From assembly GCA_000004695.1 (NCBI GenBank), contig CM000155.2, positions 3,360,001 to 3,424,000 on the forward strand: a stretch of 64,000 nt of DNA, written 5' to 3'. Below are positions 27,585 through 48,807 of the stretch, one piece after another (the first letter of the stretch is position 1; the number at the start of each line of letters is the position of its first letter). Position numbers and translations under genes: made by a program. This DNA comes from Dictyostelium discoideum (taxonomy: Eukaryota). The notes beneath the pieces were generated by a model. The model was not told where the DNA came from. It worked only from the letters and a program-made list of their open reading frames with translations, and made no database searches.

Positions 27585-27658
27585 GCCTTAGTAGCTCAGT
27601 TGGTACGAGCGTGAGACTGAAGATCTTAAGGTCGCTGGTTCGATCCCGGCCTGAGGCA
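27585..27658 (+). tRNA. tRNA-Phe (anticodon GAA)
   Basis: GCCTTAGTAGCTCAGTTGGTACGAGCGTGAGACTGAAGATCTTAAGGTCGCTGGTTCGATCCCGGCCTGAGGCA. The 7-bp acceptor stem GCCTTAG/CTGAGGC pairs, the anticodon loop is CTGAAGA, the T-arm is GCTGG-TTCGATC-CCGGC, and the discriminator is A. Internal A box TAGCTCAGTTGG and B box GGTTCGATCC are present. Confidence 0.9.
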
Positions 27659-29681: not shown

Positions 29682-31511
<1,830 letters not shown>

Positions 31512-32239: not shown

Positions 32240-32656
32240 TTAATTTTTTGGTAATAAAAGTTCTAACCTTTTAGTTATTGGAATTAATAATTCATTATCA
32301 ATATTATTTGCCAAAAGATTAATAGTGAATAGTGTATGATTTTTAATTAAATTATCCACAATACTCTTTGCACCAACTGAACTAATCTTATTATTATATA
32401 ATGATAATCTCGATAAAATATTATTAAAAGGAAACACTTGATTAGCAATTGATGTTGCACCAATATCACCAATTGAATTACAAGATAAATCTAAATTTGT
32501 TATAGTTTTATTTGACTTCAATGCAAAAGAAATCTCTTTTGCACCAATTGCACCAATTGAATTATATGATAAATCAATAAATTCAATCACATTATTCTCT
32601 TTAATTAATTTTACTAATGATAATACACCATCACTTACAACTATATTTTTATCATC

Positions 32657-32696
<40 letters not shown>

Positions 32697-34277
32697 GGTG
32701 GTGGTGAAGCTTCTTTTGGATTTGTTGTTGTTGTTGTTGTTGATTGAATATGTGAAGATTCAATAGAAGTTATTAATGATTGTGATAATGAAATTGATTT
32801 AATTGTTTTATTTTTAATTAATTGATTTGCAAGTACTGAAACACCATAATTACCAAGGGAATTACTTGATAGATCTAATTGAGTTAAATTTATATTATCA
32901 TTTATTAAACTAAATGATTTTGCTAATTTAATAGCACCTAATGCTTCTAAATTATTACTAAATAAATTTAAATATTTTATATTTGAATTCTTTAAAAATG
33001 AACCAATATATTTCGCACCTCTATGACAAATTGTATTACAAGAGAAATCAATTGATGTAATTGGTGATACACAATTAGAAGAAGAGGATGATGATGATGA
33101 TGATGATGAGGATGATGATAAAACTTCAAATGATTTTGATAATTGAATTATTCCATTTGAATTTATCCAATTAATTGATAAATCCAATTGTGTCAATGTT
33201 TTATTATTAATTATAATATCAGAGAAAGAAGAAGCACCACTATCTTCAATACAATTACTACTTAAATTCAATGTAGTAATCATTGTATTCTCATTGTATG
33301 CAATTGATTTCGATAATAATTTAGCACCTTGATCACCAATTCTATTACATGATAAATCAATATTTAAAATTGACCTATTCAATGATAATCCAAATGCAAT
33401 ATATCCAACCGCTTGATTATCAATTAAATTTCTTGATAAATTTAATGATTTTAATGATTTATTCTTTCCTAATGAATTTTTAAATGTTAATCCAATTTTT
33501 GTTATTGCTGTCGTTATTGTTGATTGTGAAATTTCTGTTGGTGTTGCTGTTGGTATTATTATTATTGATGAAGATTCTGGTGATGATGATTCTGGTGATG
33601 ATGATGAAGAAGTAGATGATGATGATGATGGTGATAATGAAAGTTTACAATTTGATAAATTTAAATCAGTTAATGATTGATTAAGTGAAATCATTTCAGC
33701 AAATGCTAAAGTACCTTCTTGAAATAATGAATTACAACTATACTGTAATGATGTTATTGAATTATTAATTGATAATGCTTTTGCAATTGCAACTGAACCA
33801 AATTGTTTAATATCATTAAATGATAAATTCAATGACTGAATAGATTTATTACTTGATAAACCATCAGCTAGTATAATTGCAGATTCATTAGATAATTGAT
33901 TATATGATAAATCCAATGACGATAATGAAAGAGGTGTAATTGTTTTAAGTATATTTGAAAATTTAGATAATCCCACAAATCCATTACTAGTCGACTCTTT
34001 ACCACCAATTTTACAACGACCTAAATCCAATGACCAAAGTATCGATTTATTGCCACTCATAATATCATTGATTATACCAATGGTGGAATTCGATGTCATC
34101 AATTTTATTGTTAACTTTATTTTAAAATATTCTGGTAAATTAACTAACGACTTTAATTGATTCAATAATCCTAAATCAATTTGGTTAAATGCTAATTCTA
34201 AATTTATTAAATTTGAATGATCTTTTAAATCATTTATAAATTCTTTTAAATTATTATTTCCATTATTTCCATTATTT

Positions 34278-34315
<38 letters not shown>

Positions 34316-34642
34316 TAAAAAATTACAATATAATATATTTAATTCAATTAAATTCTCTAAACTTTTAATTAATTTTGATAATTTTAATAAATTTAATTTA
34401 CATTGTTTTAATGATAATGTTGATGTTGATTTAAATGATGATAATATTTTTATTGGTAAATCTAGTATATCATTATTATTAAATTCTAAGAAATGTATTG
34501 TTTCTTTACAATATTTATTCCACTTTTTATCAATTAATGTTAATTGAAAATAATCTGCTGTTAATCTATTATTACTAATTAATGAAATAATCTTTTTAAT
34601 TATTATAACTGGTAATTTATTAATATTATCAACACTAATCAT
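32240..34642 (-). CDS. leucine-rich repeat protein of the ribonuclease-inhibitor (RNI) type, with a possible N-terminal F-box-like segment. 800 aa.
   Basis: The ATG is at 34640-34642. There are at least 12 repeats of the ~28-aa RNI-type LRR (LxxLDLSxNxIGxxGAxxLAxALxxNxSLxx). The N-terminus LPVIIIKKIISLI resembles an F-box core. It has Ser/Thr-rich linkers. Confidence 0.7.
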
Positions 34643-36259: not shown

Positions 36260-37009
36260 TTAATTTGTTGTATTTGTATCAGGAGTTGTAATTGTTGTTT
36301 TTGATTGATCTATTAATTCTGGGAAAATATTGACAAATTCGTGAATTTCATCTATACAATAATCGACATGAGGATCATTTGAAGTAGCACCAACCAAAAC
36401 AGTGTACATACCAGCTTTTTTTGCTTCTACTAAATTCTCTACAACATCATCGAAAAACACACAACCAGATGCATCGGTAGTGTCAGCTTTTTTCATTGCC
36501 ATTTGGTAGGCGACTGGATGAGGTTTTGAAAAGTCCATCATTTCTAAATAATCTAACCAAGCATCGAAACAATCATCAATTTCCAATTCACGTGTAACAC
36601 GTTTACAATGACCAATGTCGGCATTTGAAAAGATCACCTTTTTGACACCACTCTTTACACTCTTGAGACATGCATGTAATCGTGCATCTGGTTTTAAATG
36701 ACTCTTTAAATCTAATCCACCATGAACATAATCTAAATATTTGTCAATGTTTACTTCATGATTCATCATTAAACCTTTTAATGTGAGGCCATATGTTTTA
36801 TAATAATGATTTCTAACTTTATCTACCTCTTCCATTGGTAAATTCAATATGATTGACATATATTGAGTGATTCTATTACTAACTTGTGCTGCTAATCCAC
36901 ATGATTTTGGATATAATGTATTATCTAAATCAAATAATAATGTATGAATTTTACGTTCACCATTATTCTTTATTAAATTATCTGTTGAATTAATTTCTGC
37001 TACTGTCAT
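36260..37009 (-). CDS. HAD-superfamily pyrimidine 5'-nucleotidase (Sdt1/SSM1-like). 249 aa.
   Basis: The ATG is at 37007-37009. The HAD motif I is LLFDLDNTLY, with YYKTYGLTLKGLMMNH, KPHPVAYQMAM and VFFDD (motif IV). It is colinear with yeast Sdt1p, judged from memory. Confidence 0.75.
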   Translation of the reverse strand: MTVAEINSTDNLIKNNGERKIHTLLFDLDNTLYPKSCGLAAQVSNRITQYMSIILNLPMEEVDKVRNHYYKTYGLTLKGLMMNHEVNIDKYLDYVHGGLDLKSHLKPDARLHACLKSVKSGVKKVIFSNADIGHCKRVTRELEIDDCFDAWLDYLEMMDFSKPHPVAYQMAMKKADTTDASGCVFFDDVVENLVEAKKAGMYTVLVGATSNDPHVDYCIDEIHEFVNIFPELIDQSKTTITTPDTNTTN

Positions 37010-38571: not shown

Positions 38572-40098
38572 ATGAATTATTATCAAAATTTAAATGAAAA
38601 TAATCAATTTAAATATAAACCAAATTATAATTATAATAATAATAATAATAAATATATAAATAATAATTATAAAAATAATAATAATAATTTATTATTAAAA
38701 ATAATGAAAAAAATTAAAATTAAAATTTTAAATTTAATTGAATTTTTAAAATTTAATTTTAAAAAAACCAATTTTAAAATAATATTTAAACAAATTGGGA
38801 TTCAATTATTATTTATGTGTTTATTATTTGGAATTATTGCACCAATTTCAATTTTACTTTATAATAATTCACCATCAAAATATTTAGGTAATAAAATCCA
38901 ATTTTCAAGTGAAGATATTTATTCACCAATTGAAAATAATATTTCAATTTATGATAGAAAAGAATTTCCACAACAATGGTCACAAGTTAATATTTTATTA
39001 GACCCACATTCACATACAACTTATTCCGATGGAACATTAACACCTGAGGAGAATATAAAATGGCATATTTCCAATGGTTTCAATGCAATGTTTATGACCG
39101 ATCATAATAAAATCGAAGGTGGGTTAGAGGGACAGCGAATCGCCCAAAAGAAATACTCTTCAAAGATATTGGTGGTGCCAGGTATCGAATGGACAAATTG
39201 CAGATGTCATTTAAATTTAATTGGTATCAATGTGAATGTACCCTTAATTAAATTCCCAACAAATAAAGAAATTAAGGAAATAATTGATTTCGTTCATTCC
39301 CAAGGTGGGTTAGTTATATTGAATCATTATCCATGGAGTTACTGGGCAGGTTTAGACCAACCCTCAATGGAAGAATGGTATGAAATGGGCATTGACTTCC
39401 TCGAGGTTGTAAATATTGACACTATGGACTACCAAGGTATAGTATTTTGTAAAGACCATGACCTTCGTTATGTGACAGGTTCTGATTTCCATAGTAATCA
39501 ACATGCTTACTCTTGGACAGTTTTCAATATACCTCAATTACCACATGGTTCAATCCCAACTCAAGATCAATTAATTAAAACATTATTAGATAAATCAACT
39601 AAAACTTCATTTGCATTCGATTCACTTGCTAGTAAAACAGTTTCAGTTAAATCAAATAAATTAACACTTAATCCAACCTTCATTTTCTTATCACCTTGGA
39701 TTTATATAGGTGGTTTCTTTCATAGTTTTTTCGAATTAAAAAAAGGAATGTATAGTTTTGTAGATGGTAGTTGTACTGAACAAATTGTTGATATTCATAC
39801 CAATGAATTAGTTTCATTAGTAGCTTGGATTTTCTTTATTTTTATAATTGCCCAATTATTATATTTCACTTTAATTTTCACTTTAAATTATTTAAAATCA
39901 AAATTTAAAAATAAATCAAAAGAATCAACAACAATAAATAAAGAAGATTTTGAAAAAGAAAAAGAAACTGAAATAGAAAATGAAAAACAATCATCAATTA
40001 ATTTAGATGACAATTGTGACAATTGTGAAAGTAGTGGTAGCAGTAGTAATTCTTCTGATATTATATCAGATAATAGTTCAATAAGTAGTAACGATTAA
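38572..40098 (+). CDS. PHP-domain (polymerase/histidinol-phosphatase family) metal-dependent phosphoesterase, membrane-anchored. 508 aa.
   Basis: The N-terminus is poly-N, followed by a TM helix (IQLLFMCLLFGIIAPISILL). PHP motifs are LDPHSHTTYSDGTLTPEE (motif I, HxH...SDG), LNHYPW and VTGSDFHSNQH (C-terminal GSDxH). There are further TM helices (LVSLVAWIFFIFIIAQLLYFTLIF) and an acidic/Ser-rich tail. Confidence 0.7.
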   Translation: MNYYQNLNENNQFKYKPNYNYNNNNNKYINNNYKNNNNNLLLKIMKKIKIKILNLIEFLKFNFKKTNFKIIFKQIGIQLLFMCLLFGIIAPISILLYNNSPSKYLGNKIQFSSEDIYSPIENNISIYDRKEFPQQWSQVNILLDPHSHTTYSDGTLTPEENIKWHISNGFNAMFMTDHNKIEGGLEGQRIAQKKYSSKILVVPGIEWTNCRCHLNLIGINVNVPLIKFPTNKEIKEIIDFVHSQGGLVILNHYPWSYWAGLDQPSMEEWYEMGIDFLEVVNIDTMDYQGIVFCKDHDLRYVTGSDFHSNQHAYSWTVFNIPQLPHGSIPTQDQLIKTLLDKSTKTSFAFDSLASKTVSVKSNKLTLNPTFIFLSPWIYIGGFFHSFFELKKGMYSFVDGSCTEQIVDIHTNELVSLVAWIFFIFIIAQLLYFTLIFTLNYLKSKFKNKSKESTTINKEDFEKEKETEIENEKQSSINLDDNCDNCESSGSSSNSSDIISDNSSISSND

Positions 40099-41164: not shown

Positions 41165-42141
41165 TTTTAAATCGTTAATTGAAGTTGTTGATTTTGTTTT
41201 AATTGTATCATCTGTTAAATTATTAGTTGATTGAACTGTATTTTGTACTTTTGAACCTGTTTTTGTTGTTTTATCATCATTATTTCTATCTTCATTATCA
41301 CTGTCATTATTATTATTATTATTGTTATTATTATTTATTAACTGATTTGGATGATAATATTCATTTAAATGATCAAGATTCTAAAATGAATGAATGAATG
41401 ATAAATAAAATATATAGTTAGTTTTCCAAAATAATGTTTTTTTTTTTTTTCATTCTTATTTATTTTGTATTCTTACCTTTCTATAACATTTTGAACCAAA
41501 AGGACATTGTGGTTTAGTATTAGTATTATCTATCTTTTTCTTTTTATTTATATCTTCATTTTCATTATTTTGTTTTTGTTGTTGTAGTTGTTGATGCTGT
41601 TGATGCTGTTGCTGTTGTTGTGAATCAATTTGTTTTCTTTTTTTATCATCTTGACTTTTATTATTATCATTATTATTATTATTATTATTTATTGGTTGAA
41701 AAGTGACTAAAAATGTATACATCTCAAATAAAAGTGAAAAACAATCACCATCTTCTAAAGTATAATTTTGATCTTTTGCCATTTGAACAAAAAATTCTTG
41801 ATTTGCTTTCTTTAAGTATGATGGATTAATACCTGTCTAAAATTATTATTATTTTTGTTAGTAAAAAAAGAAAAAAATAAAAAAATGAAAAAATGAAAAA
41901 AAAAAAAAGAATTAATTTTTGAATTCATATATATATATACATAAATACTTACAGATGAAATGTAAACAGTATCATCATTTAAAGTGATTGTAATTTGTTT
42001 TCTTGAACATTTCTTTTCTTGTAATTGTTCAAATGTTCCTCTACCAATATAATAATTACCAATATCACTACAATTTAAAATTGCACCTTTCAATGAGTCA
42101 TCAATACATTTAATATTTAAACAATTATTTATTTTTTTCAT
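40165..42141 (-). CDS. FHA-domain + PBZ zinc-finger protein with a macro-domain-like C-terminal segment (APLF-like ADP-ribose-signalling / DNA-damage-response protein). The exons are complement(join(40165..40587,40661..41380,41477..41836,41953..42141)) = about 563 aa.
   Basis: All four exons are multiples of 3, and the introns are GTAAGT/GTAAGA/GTATAT...TTTTAG/TATTTAG. Exon 1-2 carries an FHA-like core (DIGNYYIGRGTFEQ...KQITITLNDDTVYISS). Exon 2 ends with the PBZ motif KPQCPFGSKCYRK|NLDHLNEYYHP (C-x-F-G-x-x-C-Y-R-K-N-x-x-H-x5-H) split by the intron. Exon 3 has N/S/T low complexity, then RSLAFPFISTSTFGFNIDDATEISANAISEYL, resembling the macro-domain SIAFPAISTGIYGYP..AA..A block. Confidence 0.6.
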
Positions 42142-42441: not shown

Positions 42442-44079
42442 TTAATTTAATTCTTGATTAATTTTAATTAATAAAGAATTAAAATAATTTGAATTCTCAG
42501 GTGATTTTGGTACACCTAAACCAAGTTTATACATATTTGATAGATTTGAAATTGCAGGTATACTTTTATTATTTAAATTGAAAGCATTTTGATAACAATA
42601 GAATGCTTTTGAATAATCAACATTTGTACCAAACCCATTGAAATGACAAACACCTTGATTTATATAAGCATCAGAATTACCTAATTCCGAAGCATCAATA
42701 AATAATTGTAATGCTTTTTTATAAGATTGTTCTCTTTTATTCTCACCTCTAAAATATTGTTCACCCAATATCACCATTGCCACTGAATCACCCCTCTCAA
42801 CACCCAATTCCAAATAATGATTAAACATATCCACATCCCTCTCACCAACACCACCAACACCATCCAAATAAAGTGATGCTAAAAATGCTGGTGCTTTACA
42901 ATTACCTTGTTCAATTGATAATTTTAAAAATTTAATTGAATCAATTAATTGTTCCTCCTCCTCCTCTTGATTATTACTATCTCTATTAATAAATGTTGAA
43001 CCTAATATAAAACTTGATTCAGAATCAGATAGTTTTGAAGAACCTTTAATTAAATATTTTAATGCTAATATTAAATGTTCTTCATTATTTAAAGTATCAT
43101 TTGAATAGGATGATAAATAGTATTTACCCAATTCCAATGTTGAGTTAACATCATCGAAATCAGTAGAAGCTTTATCTAACCAATAGATAGCTTGTTTCTC
43201 ATTTTTATCAATATTAAATTTACCATGTAATAAAATTAAACCAAGATTAAATTGAGCAACTGAAAAGTTTTGAATTGCACTTAGATGTAAATATCTTAAC
43301 CCTTTTTCAATTCTTTCTCTTTCACTAATTTCATCTTTAATTAAATTCTCTTTAAATAATACTGATTTCTTTCTTTCCTCTTTTAACCATTTTTTATAAT
43401 CAAATTGTTCTTCTTCATTATTATTATTAATTGATACCCAACCATTACCTAGTAAAACATTATTATCATTATTATTATTATTATTATTATTTGTAATTGT
43501 TGGAAATAATGGTTTAAATAAATTTTCAGTATTATTTAAAATTAATGATAAACCATATGCAAATTGACCTTTTGGATTATTATTATTGTCAGCTGATTTT
43601 CTAAAATATTCTAAAGCAATTTCATTATTCTTTTCAACGAGAATACCTTGAGCATAAAATGTACCTAAATGAAAATCAATCAATTCATCACTCTCCAGTA
43701 TATTTTGTTCTAATTGAATATATTTCTCAACTTCACCAGTTGTCATTTTACCTGTATAATCATCTCTAATCTTATTTAATAATTTTATATATTGATTTTT
43801 TGTTGATAATTCTTCATTATTATTATTAATATTATTATTATTATTATTATTAATATTACTATTATTAATATTACTATTATTTAATATTGTAGTTGGTGGT
43901 ACAGTTATTGATGGATTGTTATTACTATCACTATTATTATTATTATTATAATTATTATTATTATTATTATTTAAAGTAAATTCAATTGGTTTTTGTGTTG
44001 AAATACAAAATGATCTTTTATTATAACAAATTCTTTTAAAGACTTGAACTCTATTAAAAGAGAATTTTAATTTATTCAT
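42442..44079 (-). CDS. Sel1-like (TPR-family) repeat protein with a predicted N-terminal targeting segment. About 545 aa.
   Basis: The first true ATG is at 44077-44079; the track starts 3 codons earlier at a TTG. Multiple Sel1-type repeats are present (A..YF.KSA..GN..AQFNLGLIL..G; YKKALQLFIDASELGNSDAYINQGVCHFNGFGTNVDYSKAFYCYQNA). Confidence 0.65.
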   Translation of the reverse strand: MNKLKFSFNRVQVFKRICYNKRSFCISTQKPIEFTLNNNNNNNYNNNNNSDSNNNPSITVPPTTILNNSNINNSNINNNNNNNINNNNEELSTKNQYIKLLNKIRDDYTGKMTTGEVEKYIQLEQNILESDELIDFHLGTFYAQGILVEKNNEIALEYFRKSADNNNNPKGQFAYGLSLILNNTENLFKPLFPTITNNNNNNNNDNNVLLGNGWVSINNNNEEEQFDYKKWLKEERKKSVLFKENLIKDEISERERIEKGLRYLHLSAIQNFSVAQFNLGLILLHGKFNIDKNEKQAIYWLDKASTDFDDVNSTLELGKYYLSSYSNDTLNNEEHLILALKYLIKGSSKLSDSESSFILGSTFINRDSNNQEEEEEQLIDSIKFLKLSIEQGNCKAPAFLASLYLDGVGGVGERDVDMFNHYLELGVERGDSVAMVILGEQYFRGENKREQSYKKALQLFIDASELGNSDAYINQGVCHFNGFGTNVDYSKAFYCYQNAFNLNNKSIPAISNLSNMYKLGLGVPKSPENSNYFNSLLIKINQELN

Positions 44080-44539
44080 CTCAATCAATCTTCTTTCGTT
44101 AATGAAAAATTAAAAAAATAAAAAAATGAAAAATAAAAAAAAAATAAAAAATTAAAAAAAATAAATTTGAATGATTTTTTTTAAAACATTTAAATTTCAT
44201 ATTCAATAATAATCATGATTATTAAAAATAAATAAATTATTTTTGTTTGGTAATTATTGGTTTTTTTTTTTTTTTTTTTTTATTTTATAATTTTTAAAAA
44301 TTATTGAATAGAAAAAAAAAAAAAAATACAATAAATTCCATTGCCACTAGTCTGGTTACAAGGAATGGAATTTATTGTTTTTTTTTTTTTCCCAATTGAG
44401 AAAAAATAGGGAAATTGATAAAAAGCTTGAAAATGGATTATCGATGGTTCTCTATTATTATTCTAGAAAATTAAAACTAAACAAATATTTGAAAAAAATC
44501 TAGATTTTTTTTATAAAACTAAAAACAACAATAAAATAT

Positions 44540-47224: not shown

Positions 47225-47306
47225 TGTAAGCTAAGGGATTCGAACCCTTGTATCAATGATATTGCAGCCTTAATGCAACCCCTTAGACCAGCTCGGGCAA
47301 GCTTAC
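47225..47306 (-). tRNA. tRNA-Leu (anticodon AAG), class II with a long variable arm
   Basis: The minus strand is GTAAGCTTGCCCGAGCTGGTCTAAGGGGTTGCATTAAGGCTGCAATATCATTGATACAAGGGTTCGAATCCCTTAGCTTACA. There is a perfect 7-bp acceptor stem GTAAGCT/AGCTTAC, a Leu/Ser-type D arm (GCCCGAGCTGGTCTAAGGGG), an anticodon stem TTGCA/TGCAA with loop TTAAGGC, a variable hairpin TATCA-TT-GATA, a T arm AAGGG-TTCGAAT-CCCTT and discriminator A. Confidence 0.85.
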
Positions 47307-47769: not shown

Positions 47770-48807
47770 TTAGTTTTGATTTTTTTCAATGTAATCAATG
47801 ACAGCGCCAGTGAATTGTTTAGTTGAAGATTTACCACCGATATCAGAAGTTAAGGTACCTTCTTTAATGACGGCTTTAACGGCATTTTCAACTTTGGTAG
47901 CATGTTCATTTAAGCCTAAATGTTTTAACATCATAACAGAGGCTAATAATAAACCGGTTGGATTTGCTTTATCTTTACCGGCGATATCAGCAGCGACGTG
48001 ATGAGCACCCATTTCGAAAATAATACTTCCCTCACCAACATTTGCACCACCAGCCAAACCTGGACCACCAACTAAAGCAGCACCAATATTTGAGACAATA
48101 TTACCATATAAGTTTGGAGTGACCATAACATCGTATTGTTCTGGTGATTTAACCAATTGCATACAACAATTATCAATGATGGTGTTTTCAAATTTAATTT
48201 CTGGATACTCTTTGGCGATTTGAGTGCAAGTTGCAAGGAAGAGACCATCGGTTTGTTTTTGAATGTTTGCTTTGTGAACGGCTGTTACCTTCTTTCTACC
48301 GTTTGCTTTGGCATATTCGAATGCGTAACGAGCAATACGTTCTGATGCTTCTTTGGTTATGATTTTAAGTGATTGGACTACACCTGGTGTCAATACTTGT
48401 TCGAGACCACTGTACTCACCTTGGGTGTTCTCTCTAATGACAACAAAATCAACTAAAACATCGTCGTGACGTGCGGTGATACCTGGAATTTGTTTGCATG
48501 GTACAACGTGAGCATATAAATCTAATGCTTTTCTAAGTTCCATATTTCTTGATTGAGATCCTGATAAAATCTCAGTGTAAAGTGGTCCCTTTAATGCAAC
48601 TTTATTTCTAGTAATTGATGCAATCAATTCTTGTGAAATTGGTTGTCCACCACTAATATCGAAAATTTCCCATTCAATTGGTACTTTGGCTGCTTGGAAT
48701 ACACCCATAACTGATGATGTAATCTCTGGACCAATACCATCACCTGGAATAACTGTAACTGTTTTTTTTTGAACTCCTGATGTATATCCAAGATAATTTC
48801 TAATTGA
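47770..48807 (-). CDS. idhB: NAD+-dependent isocitrate dehydrogenase, regulatory (beta/gamma-type) subunit, mitochondrial. The visible exon is 47770..48807, and the first exon (Met + presequence) is not located.
   Basis: The exon begins after the acceptor TTTTTAG (48808-48814) with SIRNYLGYTSGVQKKTVTVIPGDGIGPEITSSVMGVFQAAKVPIEWE. It is colinear with human IDH3B (KVTAVHKANI..DGLFL; KFETMIIDNCCMQLV / KFENTIIDNCCMQLV; VMPNLYGNI; AGLVGG). The stop TAA is at 47770-47772. Confidence 0.75.
   Translation of the reverse strand, partial: SIRNYLGYTSGVQKKTVTVIPGDGIGPEITSSVMGVFQAAKVPIEWEIFDISGGQPISQELIASITRNKVALKGPLYTEILSGSQSRNMELRKALDLYAHVVPCKQIPGITARHDDVLVDFVVIRENTQGEYSGLEQVLTPGVVQSLKIITKEASERIARYAFEYAKANGRKKVTAVHKANIQKQTDGLFLATCTQIAKEYPEIKFENTIIDNCCMQLVKSPEQYDVMVTPNLYGNIVSNIGAALVGGPGLAGGANVGEGSIIFEMGAHHVAADIAGKDKANPTGLLLASVMMLKHLGLNEHATKVENAVKAVIKEGTLTSDIGGKSSTKQFTGAVIDYIEKNQN

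Follow-up and report, generated by a model that had tools for sequence, protein, structure and literature searches.

A predicted extracytoplasmic PHP hydrolase held between two transmembrane helices in Dictyostelium discoideum, with relatives in Amorphea and Asgard archaea

The gene DDB_G0293864 was studied within a stretch of 64,000 nucleotides of the Dictyostelium discoideum genome (contig CM000155.2, positions 3,360,001 to 3,424,000 of the forward strand), referred to here as the window, and all D. discoideum coordinates given below are positions within it. The open reading frame at 38572..40098 on the plus strand begins with ATG and encodes 508 amino acids with no internal stop codons, and its product was identical to the annotated DDB_G0293864 protein of D. 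discoideum AX4 (100% identity, 100% coverage), the annotation of which is merely hypothetical or 'polymerase/histidinol phosphatase-like'. A second D. discoideum paralog, DDB_G0288779, is 66% identical to it. The conserved part of the reading frame has a GC content of 27–36%, against 8–20% in the surrounding DNA. A first-pass annotation of the window had proposed a membrane-anchored PHP-domain phosphoesterase with a poly-Asn leader and amoeba-like codon usage, possibly acquired horizontally from bacteria. The codon usage was borne out, in that relative synonymous codon usage correlated with that of the other long open reading frames of the window with r = 0.945 (their own range being 0.82–0.96) and the GC content at third codon positions was 0.165; the codon usage of DDB_G0293864 is native and not distinguishable from that of these other frames. 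The features of the gene and its protein are as follows.

38572..40098, plus strand: complete single-exon gene, 508 codons plus stop, from the open reading frame listing; DDB_G0293864
38572..38691, plus strand: poly-Asn low-complexity N-terminal tail, residues 1–40, predicted to be cytosolic and disordered (44% Asn in the first 45 residues; predicted local distance difference test score, pLDDT, 35–47)
38692..38799, plus strand: Lys-rich juxtamembrane segment, residues 41–76, predicted to be cytosolic from its Lys/Arg content and the positive-inside statistics of the family
38800..38862, plus strand: first transmembrane helix (TM1), a predicted signal anchor, residues 77–97 (hydropathy peak 2.55; model helix 67–98)
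38938..38946, plus strand: N-x-S sequon N123-I-S in the linker from TM1 to the PHP domain, read from the sequence
38992..39621, plus strand: PHP catalytic domain, residues 141–350, with nine predicted metal ligands
39001..39033, plus strand: PHP motif I, DPHSHTTYSDG (H146, H148, D153), residues 144–154, aligning to the HxH...D of TM0559 and RNase AM
39478..39492, plus strand: PHP motif IV, GSDFH (D305, H307), residues 303–307, aligning to NSDFH of TM0559 and GSDFH of RNase AM
39667..39798, plus strand: pre-membrane module, residues 366–409, an aromatic helix SPWIYIGGFFHSFF and then a KGMYSF...GSC beta-hairpin (from alignment and model)
39808..39888, plus strand: second transmembrane helix (TM2), residues 413–439, with W419, F424 and Q428 at motif positions (hydropathy peak 2.49; model helix 410–464)
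39889..40095, plus strand: C-terminal tail, residues 440–508, Lys-rich next to the membrane and then acidic and Ser-rich, predicted to be cytosolic and disordered (pLDDT below 50 for residues 459–508)

Both PHP signature motifs were found where the first-pass annotation had placed them, flanked by the two hydropathy peaks, and the Asn-rich leader was likewise present. In a Kyte–Doolittle scan of the 508-residue protein, using 19-residue windows and a threshold of 1.6, the peaks fell at residues 79–97 and 420–438 and no third segment reached 1.6. The AlphaFold model (19 homologs; mean pLDDT 74), in which most 10-residue blocks of residues 121–350 lay at 87–97, contained in addition to the two long helices a pre-TM2 helix at residues 368–384 and strands at 387–390 and 405–408. 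The N-terminal tail (residues 1–76) carries 14 Lys or Arg residues against two Asp or Glu, with four Lys or Arg in the 15 residues preceding TM1, and an alignment of homologs showed its poly-Asn tract to be conserved only among close Dictyostelium species.

The two motifs are no chance resemblance, and the assignment to the PHP superfamily was supported by profile, alignment and model. Pfam PF02811 matched residues 145–208 with 28.4 bits (gathering score 26.4; E 2.5e-6), and the Heimdallarchaeum homolog scored 34.1 bits with the same model. The strongest family-level match was NCBIfam NF038032 (CehA/McbA metallohydrolase; E 9.3e-22, residues 144–312). Models of RNase RNM/AM, pAp phosphatase, histidinol phosphatase and PolX matched the N-terminal motifs alone: the cutoff of 117 bits for the histidinol phosphatase model NF004981 and its relatives was not reached, PolX scored 25 bits against a cutoff of 426 and covered residues 136–194 only, and a Pfam scan detected no polymerase domain in the protein. 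Sequence searches of the Protein Data Bank (PDB) returned RNase AM (7ug9, 9etk), TM0559 (2anu), BVU_3505 (3e38), BAD_1165 and Cv1693 (2yb1), and the alignments put H146/H148/D153, H178, E206, H213, H252 and D305/H307 on known ligand motifs. A distorted (beta/alpha)7 barrel, the fold of the superfamily, was found. Eight of the nine ligands were invariant among 19 aligned eukaryotic homologs, with H148 at least 90% conserved, and when the most divergent members, archaeal ones among them, were aligned (48 sequences), conservation of the ligand columns was again 90% or more. DDB_G0293864 is a bona fide PHP-fold protein and a predicted hydrolase, in which the predicted nine-residue metal site is complete.

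An exhaustive profile search of 1.84 billion representative sequences recovered 183 clusters at E ≤ 1e-30; at E ≤ 1e-3 the general PHP matches, which form the background, numbered 17,017. The family so defined has the layout variable tail, TM1, short linker, PHP barrel, aromatic helix, TM2 and variable tail (TM-PHP-TM), and both transmembrane helices were found in nearly every complete member. The aromatic pre-TM2 helix follows the pattern SPWIYxGxFFHSF, in which P375 and G380 are conserved from Asgard archaea to eukaryotes (Pro in 165/189 sequences and Gly in 120/189). The KGMYSF...GSC hairpin was present before TM2 in many eukaryotic members and in none of the Asgard members compared. TM2 itself carries a motif, [W/Y]-x4-F-x3-E, that is kept from Asgard archaea to fungi, with Trp or Tyr in 159/174 non-gap sequences and Glu in 131/172. 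P375, G380, W419 and F424 are all present in DDB_G0293864; in the paralog DDB_G0288779 the Glu position of TM2 is apparently occupied by His, as aligned by eye. A conserved acidic residue inside a transmembrane helix suggests that TM2 may be more than a passive anchor, and that it could serve, for example, in oligomerization, in binding a partner protein or in head-group contact.

The orientation of the protein in the membrane was assessed across 157 family members in which both transmembrane helices were detected. The mean number of Lys and Arg residues per 15-residue flank was 3.19 before TM1, 1.20 after TM1, 1.04 before TM2 and 4.29 after TM2, and by the positive-inside rule an orientation with both termini inside was favored in 90% of members and the reverse in 4.5%. 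As a second and independent indicator, 76% of the 210 TM-bearing members had an N-x-S/T sequon within the 30-residue stretch that precedes HxH, compared with 28% in composition-matched shuffles, and the sequon position in this class peaked sharply at 10–13 residues before the first His. The soluble Asgard paralogs described below have mostly Asp or Lys at this position, as judged by eye, and the 'no TM' comparison group of the sequon count was contaminated by truncated gene models. In archaea and eukaryotes alike, N-x-S/T glycosylation takes place on the exofacial or lumenal side. DDB_G0293864 has, besides N123, a second sequon at N98, directly after TM1. Because both tails would be cytosolic, the barrel would lie on the exofacial or lumenal face and would probably be N-glycosylated, and the simplest reading of these patterns puts the PHP domain outside the cell in archaea and, in eukaryotes, either in a lumen or outside the cell. 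Of the membrane anchoring proposed in the first-pass annotation the two helices stood, and the positive-inside rule together with the sequons would place the catalytic domain outside the cytoplasm.

Orthologs were not confined to dictyostelids. Among Amoebozoa, members were found in many Dictyostelia and in Physarum and Mastigamoeba; the apusomonads (Apusomonadida) contributed Thecamonas trahens, and a TM-PHP-TM member was also present in EukProt strain Nk52, which we take to be a nucleariid. Fungal members came from chytrids (Gorgonomyces, Lobulomyces, Dinochytrium), from blastoclads (Allomyces, Catenaria, Blastocladiella, Sorochytrium), from Mortierellomycotina, Mucoromycotina, Glomeromycotina and Kickxellomycotina, including Smittium, and from two Ascomycota, Saitoella and Trichomonascus. 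Two further environmental clades lay on contigs with typical eukaryotic genes (MTR4, GATA factor, importin, TRAPP, WAPL). Searches of name-bearing sources, including NCBI nr, UniRef and EukProt, returned no member from animals, choanoflagellates, plants, algae, SAR or excavates. The TM-PHP-TM family is common to Amorphea (Amoebozoa, apusomonads, Nk52 and Fungi) and to many Asgard lineages, and is sporadic in bacteria.

The prokaryotic relatives fall into two classes. The compact TM-PHP-TM class of ~ 350 amino acids was found in Heimdallarchaeota/Heimdallarchaeaceae, Promethearchaeota (Lokiarchaeota), Sigynarchaeota and genomes labeled 'Asgard group', and a soluble class of ~ 253 amino acids with no transmembrane helix was found under the labels Hermod-, Thor-, Hod- and Promethearchaeota (for example P0305, P0309, P0315 and P0320, and loci L023–L029, L032–L035, L040 and L043). 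In the NCBI taxonomy all Asgard phyla with members sit in the kingdom Promethearchaeati. The named prokaryotic protein matches were all Asgard with the exception of one (P0096) from a metagenome-assembled genome (MAG) labeled 'Bathyarchaeota'. The contig that carries it (L001, WJJB01000120.1, GCA_014729935.1) is compact and prokaryotic-looking, and a small GTPase of the Arf/Ras/Roc type is encoded a few genes upstream of the P0096 gene, at 2285–2815 on the plus strand of L001. Because GTPases of this type are typical of Asgard genomes, the 'Bathyarchaeota' bin may be mislabeled.

A pattern scan of the GTDB genomes (one genome per species, 185,579 species), using peptide patterns that were taken from 10 Asgard sequences and are biased toward Heimdall-type sequences, recovered 47 loci, 46 of which were Asgard or 'uncultured archaeon' and one bacterial. 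Among the genomes that encode the gene are those of Ca. Heimdallarchaeum aukensis and H. endolithica, both complete chromosomes. The H. aukensis product is a TM-PHP-TM protein of 340 amino acids, and its N-H-S sequon lies 12 residues ahead of the first His. These complete chromosomes, together with the compact prokaryotic contig L001, show that the Asgard matches do not stem from MAG contamination. The bacterial locus encodes a TM-PHP-TM protein of 337 amino acids on a contig from a Halioglobus sp. MAG (JAWVYG010000016.1; L047, 3908–4921, plus strand). This contig is GC-rich, carries in addition a sigma-54 activator, a fatty-acid hydroxylase family gene and an FGGY kinase, and is genuinely bacterial; it rules out an exclusive Asgard distribution among prokaryotes, and its PHP gene is probably the result of a sporadic transfer into bacteria. 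Because this member exists, the prokaryotic distribution is described here as Asgard-dominated rather than Asgard-exclusive.

The archaeal genomic context gave no functional clue. Across the 47 prokaryotic loci no recurrent neighbor of the TM-class gene was found, and the clusters that did recur nearby (an ABC ATPase at 11 loci, a TPR protein at 10 and an aminomutase-like pair at eight) did not consistently adjoin it. The aminomutase-like pair, which by sequence resemblance only looks like the alpha and beta subunits of a B12-dependent aminomutase, occurred at Promethearchaeota/Hodarchaeota loci with short matches. In H. aukensis (CP084166.1; L030, 5057–6136, minus strand) a Sulfotransfer_3 sulfotransferase (E 3.5e-30), with a hydrophobic N-terminal stretch as seen by eye, is encoded directly downstream of the PHP gene. 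Because this pairing recurs only in the sister genome of H. endolithica, no functional link between the two proteins is drawn.

Homology between the eukaryotic and Asgard TM classes extends over the whole core. When the profiles of the eukaryotic core and the Asgard TM class were compared with hhalign, the probability was 100 and the E value 1.6e-77 over 335 columns, which extend from TM1 by way of the barrel and the pre-membrane helix to TM2. An independent AlphaFold model, built for a Heimdallarchaeota member (mean pLDDT 79), has its elements in the same order and lacks only the eukaryotic beta-hairpin; its PDB neighbors are the same as those of the DDB_G0293864 model and come in very similar order. 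Over 308 trimmed columns the mean identity of DDB_G0293864 was 32.7% to Asgard TM proteins and 32.2% to fungal orthologs. Phylogeny was addressed with distance (neighbor-joining, NJ) trees only. In a rooted NJ tree with bacterial outgroups one outgroup joined Physarum and two joined P0096, and the rooted tests of monophyly were discarded because the outgroups behaved as rogue long branches. Unrooted NJ bootstraps recovered Dictyostelia with Physarum (93%), Fungi (79%) and the soluble Asgard class (86%). Best-match scores were flat over Heimdall- and Promethearchaeota-labeled loci, with a spread of ~ 10–20 bits, so that no Asgard sister lineage can be named.

Taken together, we consider DDB_G0293864 to be, with a probability of roughly 0.6, a native and vertically maintained two-pass protein, namely an outward- or lumen-facing PHP hydrolase of a TM-PHP-TM family that occurs in Amorphea and Asgard archaea. 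In the mechanism proposed, the N- and C-terminal tails would be cytosolic, the chain would cross the membrane twice, and the PHP barrel would face either the outside of the cell or the interior of a secretory or endolysosomal compartment. Bound metal would activate a water molecule for attack on an ester bond, most likely a phosphoester, and the aromatic pre-TM2 helix, the short linkers and the polar position in TM2 would keep the barrel near the bilayer. Because the active site would be held there, the substrate may be a membrane-surface head group or a soluble compound of the lumen or the cell exterior, such as a nucleotide, a nucleic acid or a phospho-metabolite. A comparable arrangement is known from PGAP5, Cdc1 and Ted1, bi- or trinuclear metal phosphoesterases that are tethered by transmembrane helices in the secretory lumen and act on the ethanolamine phosphate of GPI; they show how a lumenal enzyme tethered in this way can reach a substrate on the membrane. 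The likeness is an analogy of architecture only, as these proteins have the unrelated calcineurin-like MPE fold, and no match of this type was returned for DDB_G0293864 in the Pfam and structure searches.

A number of observations count against this interpretation. The sequon N123 lies 23 residues before H146 and thus off the family peak of 10–13, and Q428 stands in TM2 where 76% of sequences have Glu (Gln was found in 10/172). In a few members the pre-TM2 helix is itself called as transmembrane because of its hydrophobicity, and the topology would change if it spanned the bilayer. The score with NF038032 was 77.8 bits, just below the cutoff of 80, and this score, together with the CehA/McbA names given to several Asgard homologs in NCBI records, places the TM-PHP-TM family at the edge of that model. 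The term 'phosphoesterase' is not secure, because the nearest named family, CehA/McbA, hydrolyzes carbamate esters. On the evolutionary side, the split between eukaryotes and Asgard archaea in the best unrooted NJ tree had a bootstrap value of only 41%, and there is the bacterial member in Halioglobus.

The chemistry is the part of the interpretation for which an alternative has most to recommend it. It could be that the protein has the same topology and that the bond it hydrolyzes is a carboxyl ester, a carbamate ester or of some other kind, as in the CehA/McbA carbaryl hydrolases, and the best family-level match and the NCBI naming of Asgard members both point in this direction. According to a review, the catalytic domain of these hydrolases is PHP-like and contains essential histidines (at residues 467–504 in McbA), and the enzyme of Pseudomonas C5pp is located in the periplasm and carries an N-terminal transmembrane region. 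They differ from DDB_G0293864 in that the PHP-like domain lies far from the N terminus of a larger protein and in that the known substrate is a xenobiotic carbamate ester; because carbaryl is a xenobiotic, its hydrolysis is unlikely to be ancestral. All other characterized structural relatives are phosphoesterases or nucleases, the structure-matched enzymes of known function being RNase AM, Cv1693, EndoQ, histidinol phosphatase and CpsB. A full nine-ligand trinuclear site, such as that predicted here, is moreover typical of PHP phosphoesterases. We therefore regard ester hydrolysis of the CehA/McbA type as unlikely, if still deserving of attention, and by analogy with the structural relatives the assignment as a phosphoesterase is somewhat favored; of the original description, the PHP fold and the two helices stand firmly and the word phosphoesterase less so. 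The CehA/McbA-like branch also contains TM0559 (255 residues) and BVU_3505 (343 residues), crystallized but functionally uncharacterized PHP metallo-phosphoesterases that are ~ 21–25% identical to DDB_G0293864. They appear to be without the pre-TM2 helix and the TM2 motif, and BVU_3505 has an additional C-terminal domain according to its PDB title.

A second alternative is that the PHP domain is cytosolic and merely tethered, acting on nucleotides or RNA in the manner of RNase AM (TrpH) or pAp phosphatase. The presence of RNase AM and Cv1693 among the best PDB sequence matches would agree with this, and the TM-less Asgard paralog shows that the fold can work in the cytosol. RNase AM (YciV/TrpH) and Cv1693, however, are soluble proteins of the cytosol, have RNA 5′ ends or pAp as substrates and contain an insertion domain that is absent from DDB_G0293864, and the scores with the corresponding models were about one-seventh of the cutoffs, at 51.7 bits against 375 for RNase RNM/AM (NF047791) and 48.5 bits against 400 for pAp phosphatase (NF041577). 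Given also the flank charges of the 157 members and an N-glycosylation sequon of conserved position, with its enrichment in the TM class and its absence from most of the soluble paralogs, a cytosolic active site appears improbable.

It was also considered whether DDB_G0293864 might be a catalytically dead, PHP-like scaffold or receptor. One of the three Dictyostelium purpureum paralogs, P0006 (DICPUDRAFT_74921), could be cited in favor, as Gln replaces the second His of its motif I (HTQS in place of HSHT) and it is maybe degenerate or altered in specificity. However, the nine ligands are kept from eukaryotes to Asgard archaea at a mean pairwise identity of ~ 31–34%, which is the signature of selection on catalysis, and conservation at such low identity makes a dead enzyme very improbable.

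The least tenable proposal is that a bacterial PHP gene was acquired by dictyostelids and gained its membrane anchors later: the far greater abundance of PHP domains in prokaryotes, some weak bacterial matches (P0020–P0023) and the true family member in the Halioglobus MAG may be set in its favor, and against it stand the TM-PHP-TM proteins of Physarum, Mastigamoeba, Thecamonas, Nk52 and at least six fungal lineages, the bootstrap groups of Dictyostelia with Physarum and of Fungi, the native codon usage, the anchors already present in the Asgard homologs, and scores of at most 110 bits for bacterial proteins outside the family (the best being a BVU_3505-like Maribacter protein of 483 amino acids) compared with 234–426 bits for Asgard proteins. 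Recent bacterial transfer into dictyostelids, as raised in the first-pass annotation, is effectively excluded.

The route by which eukaryotes and Asgard archaea came to share the family is a separate matter, and the distribution supports vertical inheritance and an ancient Asgard-to-Amorphea transfer about equally. A single ancient transfer from Asgard archaea to stem Amorphea, followed by loss in Holozoa, is a plausible proposal that falls short of an even chance. It is possible, and is held here more doubtfully, that the gene came down vertically from the archaeal ancestor and was lost both outside Amorphea and in Holozoa; more complex histories make up the remainder. Similarly tentative is the fuller proposal that an Asgard-derived enzyme, already extracytoplasmic, N-glycosylated and anchored by two transmembrane helices, was inherited vertically, retained in Amorphea (Amoebozoa, apusomonads and Holomycota) and lost elsewhere. 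Transfer from eukaryotes to Asgard archaea is unlikely, because the family is probably old in Asgard archaea, given its presence in several phyla, its two architectural classes and a mean identity of ~ 40% among TM members.

Some further features of the window were recorded. The upstream neighbor of DDB_G0293864, at 36260–37009 on the minus strand, encodes a HAD-superfamily hydrolase of 249 amino acids (Pfam Hydrolase and HAD_2, E ~ 2e-12), and its adjacency to the PHP gene in D. discoideum is probably coincidental. Minus-strand reading frames at 29682–31511, 32240–34642, 42442–44088 and 47770–48708 gave matches to a class-3 lipase, LRR_6 repeats, Sel1 repeats and isocitrate/isopropylmalate dehydrogenase, and several of these four are likely to be exons of larger spliced genes. 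An open reading frame of 108 amino acids at 41456–41782 on the minus strand contains poly-Asn and poly-Gln tracts and a weak terminal match to PBZ (zf-CCHH; 21.5 bits against a gathering score of 22.7), and is probably one exon of a DNA-damage-response protein. Two tRNA genes complete the record.

27585–27658, plus strand: tRNA-Phe(GAA)
47225–47306, minus strand: tRNA-Leu(AAG)

A literature search for DDB_G0293864, DDB_G0288779 or a PHP domain in Dictyostelium returned nothing relevant, and none was found that links PHP domains with Asgard archaea or with proteins shared by Asgard archaea and eukaryotes, two Asgard papers being silent on the family. As fold and chemistry are known, this is not a new kind of enzyme. 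What is apparently undescribed in the searchable literature is a PHP hydrolase tethered between two transmembrane helices with a predicted active site outside the cytoplasm, the retention of this architecture from Asgard archaea to amoebae and fungi, and its almost wholly Asgard distribution among prokaryotes. Either route of descent replaces the scenario of bacterial transfer into dictyostelids with a better-supported one. An ancient Asgard-to-Amorphea transfer would be a rare documented case of gene flow in that direction. If, instead, the eukaryotic copies descend from the archaeal host, an exofacial membrane enzyme with a position-conserved glycosylation site would be added to the set shared by Asgard archaea and eukaryotes, as one of the few such proteins that are neither cytoskeletal, trafficking nor informational, and the genetics of Dictyostelium and Mucor would offer a tractable handle on an Asgard surface enzyme.

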